Source: a virus (lineage: Duplodnaviria; Heunggongvirae; Uroviricota; Caudoviricetes). Taken from it: a stretch of DNA of 64,000 nt. Position 1 is the stretch's first letter; the number at the start of each line of letters is the position of its first letter. The stretch spans positions 68,460 through 132,459 of IMG/VR virus record IMGVR_UViG_3300021431_000080; one strand, written 5' to 3'. Of the stretch, positions 22,051-22,127 are shown piece by piece. A program made the position numbers and the translations under genes. The notes under the pieces were generated by a model. It searched no databases, was not told the origin of the DNA, and saw only the letters and a program-made list of their open reading frames with translations.

Positions 22051-22127
22051 TGGGGCGTATCCCCTGTGTCTTATACACACTTGAAAGGGTAGTCGGTTAC
22101 ACGTGGGTTCGATTCCCACCGCCCCAA
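22051..22127 (+). ncRNA. tRNA-like minihelix element (perfect acceptor stem plus canonical T-arm, no recognisable D or anticodon arms)
   Basis: TGGGGCG...45-nt filler...GTGGGTTCGATTCCCAC-CGCCCCA-A. The acceptor is 7/7 paired but the interior cannot be folded as a cloverleaf. Confidence 0.4.

Follow-up and report, generated by a model that had tools for sequence, protein, structure and literature searches.

A probable tRNA-Ile with a rearranged core in a phage tRNA island, and its Ile- and Arg-type relatives

We examined a 64,000-nucleotide (nt) stretch of a phage genome (positions 68,460 to 132,459 of the IMG/VR record IMGVR_UViG_3300021431_000080; hereafter, the window). At about 21-45 kb, and on the + strand only, the window has an island of transfer RNA (tRNA) genes, with 35 tRNAs and one transfer-messenger RNA (tmRNA) according to ARAGORN, or 37 matches at the gathering score according to Rfam. 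Scattered among these are genes for HNH and GIY-YIG endonucleases, for an SPFH protein, and, at 41805-43448, for a Ro60/TROVE protein. We were concerned with four places in the island, all on the + strand, that resemble the top half of a tRNA: locus 1 (22051-22127), locus 2 (22642-22779), locus 3 (29046-29090), and locus 4 (33543-33686). ARAGORN calls none of the four, and none has an Rfam match at the gathering score. An initial annotation had described each of them as a perfectly paired acceptor stem of 7 base pairs (bp) with a canonical T-arm, and with no foldable D or anticodon arms in between. Most of our analysis concerns locus 1.

We scanned both strands for seven consecutive pairs (at least five of them Watson-Crick) that directly enclose a 5-bp T-stem with a TTCRANN loop. 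The scan recovered locus 1 (22051-22126: TGGGGCG/CGCCCCA around GTGGG TTCGATT CCCAC), locus 2 (22642-22778: GGCGGGA/TCCCGCC around GTAGG TTCAAAT CCTAC), and locus 4 (33543-33685: GAAGTCA/TGACTTC around GGTGG TTCGAAT CCACT). So the description of the top half holds for these three, and not for locus 3, which has 5 bp and 4 bp. Altogether, 40 such elements are found on the + strand of the window, against 2 on its - strand. In dinucleotide shuffles, the mean is 1.1 per strand and the maximum is 5, so the class is real and far above chance. The count alone does not prove a lone element that has no other support, such as locus 4. Thermodynamic folding by itself is uninformative for these loci: the folding z-scores of loci 1 to 4 are -1.0, -3.6, -0.7 (-0.66), and -0.9.

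Locus 1 has more of the features of a tRNA than its top half (Table 1). Besides the acceptor stem of 7 bp and a T-stem of 5 bp, whose loop is of the T-psi-C type, it has an anticodon loop of 7 nt, in which U33 is present and position 37 is a purine. What it does not have is a D stem-loop on the way from position 9 to the anticodon stem: U8-A9 is separated from the anticodon hairpin by just 5 nt, and a D-loop-like segment lies 3' of the hairpin. When all possible single segments were removed from locus 1, ARAGORN never called it.

Table 1. Coordinates of the elements of loci 1 to 4 and of other tRNA-like genes in the window.
Feature	Position	Strand	Remarks
Locus 1: acceptor stem 5' strand UGGGGCG	22051-22057	+	pairs with 22120-22126; 7/7 pairs compensatory in family
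Locus 1: U8-A9-U10 connector	22058-22060	+	UAU invariant in seven-sequence alignment A5
Locus 1: helix H1 5' strand CCC	22061-22063	+	pairs with 22087-22089; putative stand-in for D-stem 23-25
Locus 1: anticodon hairpin H2, GUGU/CUUAUAC/ACAC	22066-22080	+	anticodon UAU at 22072-22074; 4/4 stem pairs compensatory
Locus 1: return strand U-UGAAA, anticodon hairpin to H1	22081-22086	+	family consensus U-WGAAA
Locus 1: helix H1 3' strand GGG	22087-22089	+	putative stand-in for D-stem 10-12
Locus 1: 13-nt D-loop-like linker UAGUCGGUUACAC	22090-22102	+	equivalents of A14, R15, G18 G19, N20, Y48
Locus 1: T-arm GUGGG UUCGAUU CCCAC	22103-22119	+	
Locus 1: acceptor 3' strand CGCCCCA and discriminator A	22120-22127	+	no encoded CCA; ACAC next
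Locus 2: acceptor stem	22642-22648 with 22772-22778	+	
Locus 2: D-stem-like GUG/CAC	22651-22653 with 22728-22730	+	
Locus 2: internal 8-bp helix, one bulge	22670-22677 with 22704-22712	+	
Locus 2: T-loop-like hairpin	~22714-22725	+	
Locus 2: hairpin at anticodon position	22731-22750	+	8-nt loop AUUUUGAC
Locus 2: T-arm	22755-22771	+	
Locus 3: T-arm-like hairpin GGGG UUCGAAU CCCC in 5-bp CGCCG/CGGCG stem, then UUUU	29046-29090	+	
Locus 4: acceptor stem	33543-33549 with 33679-33685	+	
Locus 4: D-arm-like region	33553-33569	+	3-bp AGC/GCU stem, GG-containing loop
Locus 4: CUGCA/UGCAG stem, anticodon-stem register	33571-33575 with 33652-33656	+	encloses 76 nt
Locus 4: T-arm	33662-33678	+	preceded by 5-nt variable loop
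Complete one-piece tmRNA	35898-36240		Rfam 101 bits, also ARAGORN; tag GNNTYRLAA
Intron-bearing tRNA-Tyr	21624-21823		
Intron-bearing tRNA-Asn	24761-24916		
Intron-bearing tRNA-Arg	30185-30340		
Intron-bearing tRNA-Ile	44517-44674		
tRNA-like gene missed at default thresholds	34315-34402		
tRNA-like gene missed at default thresholds	28351-28428		
tRNA-like gene missed at default thresholds	33937-34050		
tRNA-like gene missed at default thresholds	40263-40354		

Sibling strains, which have 99.1-100% identity to the window, are nearly uninformative on loci 1-3. Searching INPHARED for near-identity with the island gave a single irrelevant match of 75 nt; a search with a neighbouring protein (18848-19885) led to one contig, which has no tRNAs; and a 430-amino-acid protein from the island has just two homologs, which are distant and come from very short contigs. 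Starting from the SPFH protein, we reached a related IMG/VR contig, L140 (81% protein identity), and L140 has an ortholog of locus 1 at 5577-5656, with 78% identity and no gaps. The differences between the two sequences are compensatory in the acceptor stem, the T-stem, the 4-bp hairpin, and the 3-bp helix (H1). The hairpin loop is CUUAUAC in the window (anticodon UAU) and CUGAUAA in L140 (anticodon GAU), and both are anticodons for isoleucine.

One pattern scan gave five further copies, with the anticodon GAU or CAU. In the resulting alignment of seven sequences (A5), 97% of cells are paired and 13 of the 19 pairs are compensatory, which was matched by none of 500 shuffles. As another control, we slid the partners, and then 35-52% of cells were paired. 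A covariance model of the family (R1), which was built partly from the window copy, gives locus 1 a score of 100 bits, with the entire order of acceptor, UAU, H1, anticodon hairpin, WGAAA, H1', GG linker, and T-arm. Support for the structure from outside the window copy comes from the independent ortholog and from 62 sequences that were not used in building R1. With R1 we also identified a second copy within one contig and a divergent member, with the loop CUUCUAA (anticodon UCU, for arginine) and an encoded CCA. A looser pattern matches at least 119 IMG/VR contigs. Running R1 on 77 loci from these contigs, along with the earlier loci, gave 74 matches, of which 69 are distinct (alignment A6).

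Across the 69 sequences of A6, 98.3% of cells are paired and 17 of the 19 pairs are compensatory. Covariation is present in all of the acceptor pairs, in 3 of the 5 T-stem pairs, and in all 4 of the anticodon-stem pairs, and the middle pair of H1 is CG in 25 sequences, UA in 23, GC in 12, and AU in 6; four helices are supported. The idea that no D or anticodon arm can be folded is incorrect for locus 1, which has two further helices with strong covariation. Members of the family begin with the 7-bp acceptor, U-A-U, the first strand of H1 (C-N-C), C-U, a 4-bp stem with a 7-nt loop, and U-WGAAA (the variants include UAGAAA in 18 members, UUGAAA in 5, and AUGAAA in 5). These are followed by H1' (G-N-G), a 13-nt linker (U-A-R-U-N-G-G-N...Y), the T-arm, the 3' strand of the acceptor, and the discriminator. 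The anticodon loop has 7 nt in 68 of the 69 sequences, and in all of the A6 rows that were read, its second position is U and its sixth position is A.

The anticodons are either of Ile/CAU types (GAU in 8 sequences, UAU in 19, and CAU in 5) or of Arg types (UCU in 22, ACG in 8, CCU in 4, UCG in 2, and CCG in 1), with no further classes in A6. The discriminator is A in all 32 of the Ile/CAU types. The nucleotide 3' of the GG is A in all 37 of the Arg types and U in 31 of the 32 Ile/CAU types. (A20 is the main identity element for arginyl-tRNA synthetase, or ArgRS, in E. coli.) The third and last nucleotides of the linker covary (A:U in 51 sequences, G:C in 11, and other combinations in 6), like the Levitt pair 15:48. 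CCA is encoded in 26 of the 69 members.

Members are also present in cultured phages. Streptomyces phage LilMartin (MT684590) has an intergenic member at 73463-73543 (GAU, 80.8 bits), just 3' of a nucleotidyltransferase gene, and two tRNA-Pro genes lie upstream at a distance of a few hundred bases. In Pseudomonas phage PA11 (NC_007808), there is a largely intergenic member at 47672-47754 (UCU, with CCA encoded). Neither record has an RNA feature annotated at the element. We also found matches, by blastn only, in phages TC6, PSA11, Coruscant (Streptomyces), Peregrin (Rhodococcus), and Magritte (Microbacterium), and in a crAss-like phage.

Standard tools have difficulty with this family. ARAGORN calls none of the 69 members, in either its default mode or its mitochondrial mode, and the Rfam tRNA model has no match to locus 1 at E <= 10. 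With the same model, most of the canonical tRNAs in the island score 45-76 bits, versus 29.5-38.7 bits for those family members that reach the gathering score. In one respect the initial annotation was supported: the island strand does carry tRNA-derived genes that standard tools skip. According to a paper from 2024, every bacterial tRNA known so far is canonical (PMC11551756), and in the full-text literature, of which our coverage was incomplete, we found no description of non-canonical or D-arm-lacking phage tRNAs.

Given the comparative evidence, locus 1 is probably a structurally non-canonical tRNA-Ile(UAU), from a widespread phage family of Ile- and Arg-type tRNAs. There is nothing unusual about its acceptor stem, T-arm, and anticodon stem-loop, but its core has a different wiring. 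In tRNA numbering, the order of the segments would be 8-9 / 22-25, 26, 27-43, 44-45 / 10-13, 14-21 / 46-48, which is to say that the adjacent blocks 10-21 and 22-45 would be exchanged. Each strand could retain its usual spatial neighbour, with H1 as a substitute for the D-stem, stacked on the anticodon stem, and with the H1 pair G37:C13 placed where G10:C25 normally is. The 3' strand of H1 would run into the A14-R15...G18-G19 loop, as strand 10-13 normally does, and its 5' strand would run into the anticodon stem, as strand 22-25 normally does. The stack would have about 10 layers (U.U, the three H1 pairs, C.A, U.U, and four pairs), like a normal D-arm plus anticodon arm, and the GG would contact the T-loop, with 8:14-like and 15:48-like pairs forming as well. 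This block-swap fold is consistent with every covarying position that could be tested. The swapped order might have originated if segment 10-45 was duplicated in tandem and the outer halves were then lost.

The RNA from locus 1 would be transcribed with the rest of the + strand island, cut by RNase P, trimmed at its 3' end, and extended by CCA addition; because no CCA is encoded, the CCA-adding enzyme would be required. The isoleucyl-tRNA synthetase (IleRS) of the host would then charge it, and it would read AUA, which is the commonest isoleucine codon of the phage. In 19 long open reading frames (ORFs) from the window, AUA accounts for 286 of 614 isoleucine codons, and AGA and AGG together account for 244 of 348 arginine codons, so the anticodons of the family are the ones that such a phage would need.

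We lean slightly towards a broader proposal, again on the basis of sequence comparisons: that many phages, cultured ones of Pseudomonas and Streptomyces among them, encode working tRNAs for Ile (AUA/AUH) and Arg that have not been annotated, in which the block with the D 5' strand and the D-loop is swapped with the block with the D 3' strand and the anticodon arm, so that the L-shape arises from a different topology. This rewiring might let them escape nucleases or defences that recognise canonical cores. If these RNAs are charged and decode, then the cloverleaf order is not the sole way to build a cytoplasmic-type tRNA in cells or viruses. If true, the proposal would also imply that inventories of phage tRNAs undercount the decoders of AUA and of AGA/AGG/CGN, which are codons that phages are commonly said to cover with their own tRNAs. 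The family would be a natural test of what RNase P, the CCA-adding enzyme, IleRS and ArgRS, EF-Tu, and the ribosome need from the core of a tRNA, and it may show how phage tRNAs can depart from the host tRNAs that are hit by anti-phage nucleases. More practically, if a perfect acceptor stem and T-arm surround an odd middle, comparative analysis should come first, before the element is called a fragment.

How does the family compare to known tRNAs and tRNA-like RNAs? Like canonical tRNA-Ile and tRNA-Arg (RF00005), it has a 7-bp acceptor, a 5-bp T-arm with a UUCGAUU-type loop, an anticodon loop of 7 nt that includes U33 and A37, A73 for Ile, an A after G18 G19 for Arg, a 15:48-type pair, and a place in a phage tRNA array. 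Unlike them, it has no D-arm between position 9 and the anticodon stem; instead, the anticodon hairpin closes a 3-bp helix that resembles the D-stem, and the D-loop-like segment is 3' of that helix. Cyanidioschyzon merolae and Nanoarchaeum have permuted and split tRNA genes, and there the segment order in the gene also departs from the canonical one, but the canonical mature tRNA is restored by processing or by trans-joining. In the family, the ends of the acceptor are where they normally are; it is an inner part of the chain that is permuted, and the mature RNA presumably keeps this order.

Metazoan tRNA-Ser(AGY) and the nematode tRNAs with D-replacement loops are mitochondrial tRNAs that lack the D-arm (reviewed in PMC4013460 and PMC4394434). 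They too have no stem-loop between the acceptor and anticodon stems, and they still act as adaptors. However, they have lost the elements by which the D-loop and the T-loop make contact, whereas the family keeps the GG loop and a D-stem-like helix, albeit relocated. Also, the family is from phages of bacteria, and its members are not recognized in ARAGORN's mitochondrial mode. The allo-tRNAs have 8/4 or 9/3 acceptor/T branches (PMC5389517), whereas the family keeps 7/5 and has an altered connectivity of the D and anticodon regions instead. The tRNA-like domain of tmRNA (RF00023) resembles the family in having an acceptor stem and a T-arm with no canonical arm straight after position 9. However, locus 1 has no G3:U70, no pseudoknots, and no tag reading frame, and it scores below 47 bits.

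Several points weigh against the view that locus 1 is a decoding tRNA. Its three-dimensional equivalence to tRNA is our inference from connectivity and covariation. The anticodon stem has just four Watson-Crick pairs and a U.U. Because the window also has an intron-bearing tRNA-Ile(UAU), the function of locus 1 would be redundant unless the other copy is inactive. Our search pattern included a fixed UAUC-N-C and GUAR-U-N-GG, which could bias the family towards its Ile- and Arg-only spectrum. Finally, the Rfam tRNA model reaches the gathering score for 7 of the 15 members that were tested, so covariance-based finders may already pick up some members at low scores.

An alternative is that the family consists of tRNA mimics that do not decode, such as decoys for the tRNA nucleases or modification enzymes of the host, or regulators that bind IleRS or ArgRS. 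The non-canonical core, the short anticodon stem, the restriction to two amino-acid classes, and the second tRNA-Ile(UAU) gene in the same phage would all fit with this. But a decoy would have no reason to keep class-specific nucleotides in the D-loop and at the discriminator, a 15:48-like pair, or an encoded CCA. Nor would it need an arm with about 10 stacked layers, as in a decoding tRNA, which is what A5 suggests. Also, the anticodons fit the phage's commonest isoleucine and arginine codons. So we think that mimicry is unlikely, and that a decoding tRNA is a better explanation for locus 1.

The initial annotation had a different proposal: that loci 1-4 are a single family of free-standing minihelices without anticodons, akin to the minihelices within the introns of the island's split tRNAs, and that they act as decoys for RNase P or the CCA enzyme, as Ro60 partners, or as primers, or are remnants of a mobile element. 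It is true that three of the loci are perfect in their top halves and go unnoticed by tRNA finders, and that locus 2 has no conserved anticodon loop. Also, another phage contig has a version of locus 1 without H1 and H2. However, locus 1 has a conserved anticodon hairpin and H1, and locus 3 does not fit the definition. The fillers of the four loci share no similarity, and R1 finds no second member in the window, where nothing besides locus 1 scores above the background from ordinary tRNAs. The minihelices in the introns have no specific similarity to any of the loci, and the 21.6 bits that R1 gives to an intron minihelix is at the level of ordinary tRNAs. As for Ro60, a YrlA-like RNA adjoins its gene (see below), while locus 1 is 19.7 kb away. 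We found no evidence for roles of loci 1-4 as primers or mobile elements. A single minihelix family is therefore very unlikely. The initial annotation had allowed that its minihelices might prove to be tRNAs with unusual arms under covariance modelling, and this is what the modelling gave for locus 1. Overall, its observation was partly confirmed and its interpretation is partly supported, but for locus 1 the interpretation is wrong.

The shortened version is a 50-nt element on the - strand of IMGVR_UViG_3300010349_000091 (L003:3538-3587). It has the acceptor stem, U-A, T-arm, and ACA tail as in locus 1, with an interior of just 13 nt (AUUGGAAAAGGGU), and R1 gives it 34.6 bits. It looks like a deletion derivative that is without both of the inner helices. 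In the 9.7 kb that was searched of this 30-kb phage contig, there is no ARAGORN tRNA.

It is highly improbable that the loci are decaying tRNA pseudogenes with scrambled interiors. The acceptor stem and T-arm of locus 1 are identical to those of many bacterial tRNA-Gln(UUG) genes (from a scan of metagenomes for an acceptor/T-arm pattern), phage tRNA-Met genes match the top half of locus 2, no homolog of locus 4 was found, and the length of a run of A in locus 2 differs between strains. But decay would strike the stems as well, and every helix of locus 1 has been kept by compensatory changes across 69 sequences, as have eight pairs of locus 2. The Gln-like acceptor is peculiar to the window copy and is not shared by the other family members. 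A pseudogene, too, would not be expected to retain the class-specific nucleotides, the 15:48-like pair, or the encoded CCA.

Lastly, locus 1 has almost no chance of being a tmRNA-type domain from a split tmRNA: although tmRNA is its best Rfam match (24.7 bits, E = 9e-8), the gathering score is 47, only the acceptor and T-arm are aligned and 306 model positions are skipped, 3:70 is G:C and not G:U, the window has a complete one-piece tmRNA elsewhere, and the family has anticodon loops.

Locus 2 appears to be a different kind of RNA. Using nhmmer, we found one full-length homolog (L229:97-235), and 8 of the 27 predicted pairs are compensatory, including two in the acceptor, one in the T-stem, and four in the internal 8-bp helix. 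Both sequences also have a UAC-UUCG(A)AG-GUA hairpin, and in both GUG pairs with CAC where the D-stem would be. So here too there are foldable arms, contrary to the initial annotation: three further helices are kept in the homolog. The loop at the anticodon position has 5 or 7 nt (UGAGG) in the homolog versus 8 nt in the window. A copy identical to the homolog is on a 410-kb scaffold that was binned as a rumen Firmicutes metagenome-assembled genome, and this was the sole return of the genome scan. For a third candidate homolog (L255), the alignment was unconvincing.

The 3' 24-mer of locus 2 is identical to that of tRNA-Met/fMet genes from six IMG/VR phages and eight Escherichia phages, and its top half resembles the window's tRNA-Met at 29584. 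ARAGORN takes locus 2 only once 63-70 nt have been removed from its D region, and in most cases (78 of 150 calls) the "anticodon" then has 4 bases. We also considered that locus 2 might be a tRNA with an intron, but no single deletion gives a canonical tRNA with a 7-nt anticodon loop. Nor does it appear to be coding: a 31-codon frame runs from an AUG to the UGA in the loop, but in the homolog there is a stop after three codons, and the frame is shifted by a polymorphism in the run of A between strains. (The run at 22653 is one A longer in the sibling strain L006, which is the sole difference that we found between the window and L006 in loci 1-3.) We read locus 2 as a conserved RNA derived from tRNA-Met, with two sequences as support, in which the D-loop has an insertion of about 65 nt and there is no conserved anticodon loop. 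It is probably not a decoder. The notion of a tRNA-like RNA that does not decode probably suits at least locus 2, which is conserved, and is unlikely for locus 1, with its anticodon hairpin.

Locus 4 is an orphan as far as its sequence can be read: a tRNA-shaped element in which a domain of 76 nt replaces the anticodon loop. Whether it lacks foldable arms is doubtful, as a D-arm-like AGC/GCU and a 5-bp CUGCA/UGCAG stem can be drawn. A 5-bp stem of the latter type, in the register of the anticodon stem, arises in 1.2% of shuffled interiors. No way of splitting the 76 nt yields U33, and when we considered an intron, single deletions gave only inconsistent solutions from ARAGORN. Its 3' 25-mer has no match in IMG/VR, and neither blastn nor nhmmer found a homolog in 1.1 Mb of phage tRNA regions or in INPHARED. 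Locus 4 does not resemble the two other long acceptor/T-arm elements of a related contig (L140:5226-5409 and L140:12153-12321), which ARAGORN does not call either. For loci 2 and 4, the precedent that comes nearest is the pair of stable RNAs of phage T4 known as species 1 and 2 (rnaC and rnaD), which are small RNAs of the tRNA cluster with tRNA-like ends and with no known function; kinship in sequence would not be expected.

Locus 3 is insignificant. It is not a 7-bp minihelix, and it is within chance: T-arm-like hairpins of its quality occur about 5 times per dinucleotide-shuffled strand. It begins 1 nt after tRNA-Val(CAC) and is identical in the sibling strains. We considered that it might be an intrinsic terminator, but the terminator scan did not call it.

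The Ro60 gene brings up the Y RNAs. YrlA has a T-arm, a closed acceptor-like hairpin, and a D-arm; its ends form the Ro60-binding stem; and it is encoded at most 4 kb from the Ro60 gene, on the strand of that gene (PMC4201824). The motif GNCGAAN0-1G is found near the 5' end of Y RNAs (PMC4201824), and it does not occur inside any of loci 1-4. YrlA and other bacterial Y RNAs are tRNA-like non-coding RNAs, some of them in phages, which makes them relevant to loci 2 and 4. In contrast to YrlA, the ends of loci 1-4 are open at the acceptor, and loci 1-3 are 12.7-19.7 kb from the Ro60 gene (about 8 kb for locus 4).

A YrlA-like candidate on the strand of the Ro60/TROVE ORF lies at 41579-41722, about 80 nt upstream of that ORF. 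Its terminal stem, which is long (ACACCAG.../...CACUGGUGU), surrounds a T-arm (41612-41628), then a closed acceptor-like hairpin, then a D-arm, and finally another hairpin. With this order of modules, which is that of YrlA, it would fit better than loci 1-4 as a Y-RNA-like partner of Ro60. The Rfam tRNA model matches its 3' part (41642-41703, 32.8 bits), and a hairpin like an intrinsic terminator follows at 41730-41762, before the Ro60 start codon at 41805. A second tRNA-like element, without an acceptor stem, is at 41324-41389 (45.6 bits). Directly 3' of the Ro60 gene, and still within the tRNA island, is an ORF for a calcineurin-like metallophosphoesterase (43520-44131). It is speculation only, but this might be an RNA end-healing enzyme that is relevant to the short introns.

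Those introns are in the anticodon loops of four tRNAs (Tyr-GUA, which was found by hand, Asn-GUU, Arg-UCU, and Ile-UAU) and are not group I introns. Their sizes are 76 nt (Ile), 83 nt (Asn and Arg), and about 117 nt (Tyr), and each contains an 8-bp acceptor-like stem and a T-arm of its own; in the Tyr intron, there is a nearly complete tRNA-like fold (21689-21777). The introns of Asn and Arg share the 5' module WUACAGAGUKGUUCACUGGGACGAAC, with the cut after position 34, and those of Tyr and Ile share U-G...G-N-G AGUAAA C-N-C...AAAUCG, with the cut after position 37. The 5' motif has no exact match in IMG/VR. The 3' junction is one C past the 8-bp stem in Asn, Arg, and Tyr, and also in an intron of a tRNA-Met in a related contig (L140:8620-8773). 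Sibling strains L006 and L007 have a different, intronless tRNA-Asn at the same site, and in L140, the genes for Tyr, Asn, and Arg-UCU are intronless. Another contig, L143, has a group I intron at 5812-6025 (Rfam, 64 bits), within a 268-nt acceptor/T-arm span (5795-6062). L143 also carries a member of the locus 1 family, so classical group I tRNA introns coexist with short introns in such phages. We had considered theta ribozymes and ribozymes that resemble that of the hepatitis delta virus (HDV), and at the gathering score, the window has no match to Rfam's ribozyme families.

The window is part of a metagenomic contig of 286,399 bp (ENA ERZ12302815 NODE_23), which looks like a jumbo phage. 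Protein matches include Hsp70, a TnpB-type OrfB, a fragment of a family B DNA polymerase, and Acb3. The TnpB/IS605 OrfB-type gene and an ORF for an AAA/ABC-type ATPase are at 3781-4977 and 7734-8720, and the ATPase ORF has a weak match to an intein-splicing domain, under the Pfam cut-off. The island includes an amber-suppressor-type tRNA, with anticodon CUA, at 26055-26126. Recoding is not obvious in the window, as TAG is the stop codon of 3 of the 19 long ORFs that were counted.

Several other tRNA-like genes in the window are missed at default thresholds (Table 1). They include a gene like that of a class-II tRNA-Ser(UGA), whose T-loop is non-standard and to which the tRNA-Sec model gives 37 bits (below gathering); an element with a CAU loop and no acceptor pairing; an element with a GU-rich acceptor and a 6-bp T-stem (33937-34050); and a Ser(GCU)-like gene (40263-40354). 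Odd or long acceptor/T-arm elements without an ARAGORN call are found in the tRNA arrays of related phages as well (L143:4839-4956 and L144:4872-4952, 5086-5168, and 4368-4460). One 184-nt element from the related arrays has a perfect tRNA-Tyr-like anticodon arm, GUUCAUU CUGUAAA AAUGAAC.

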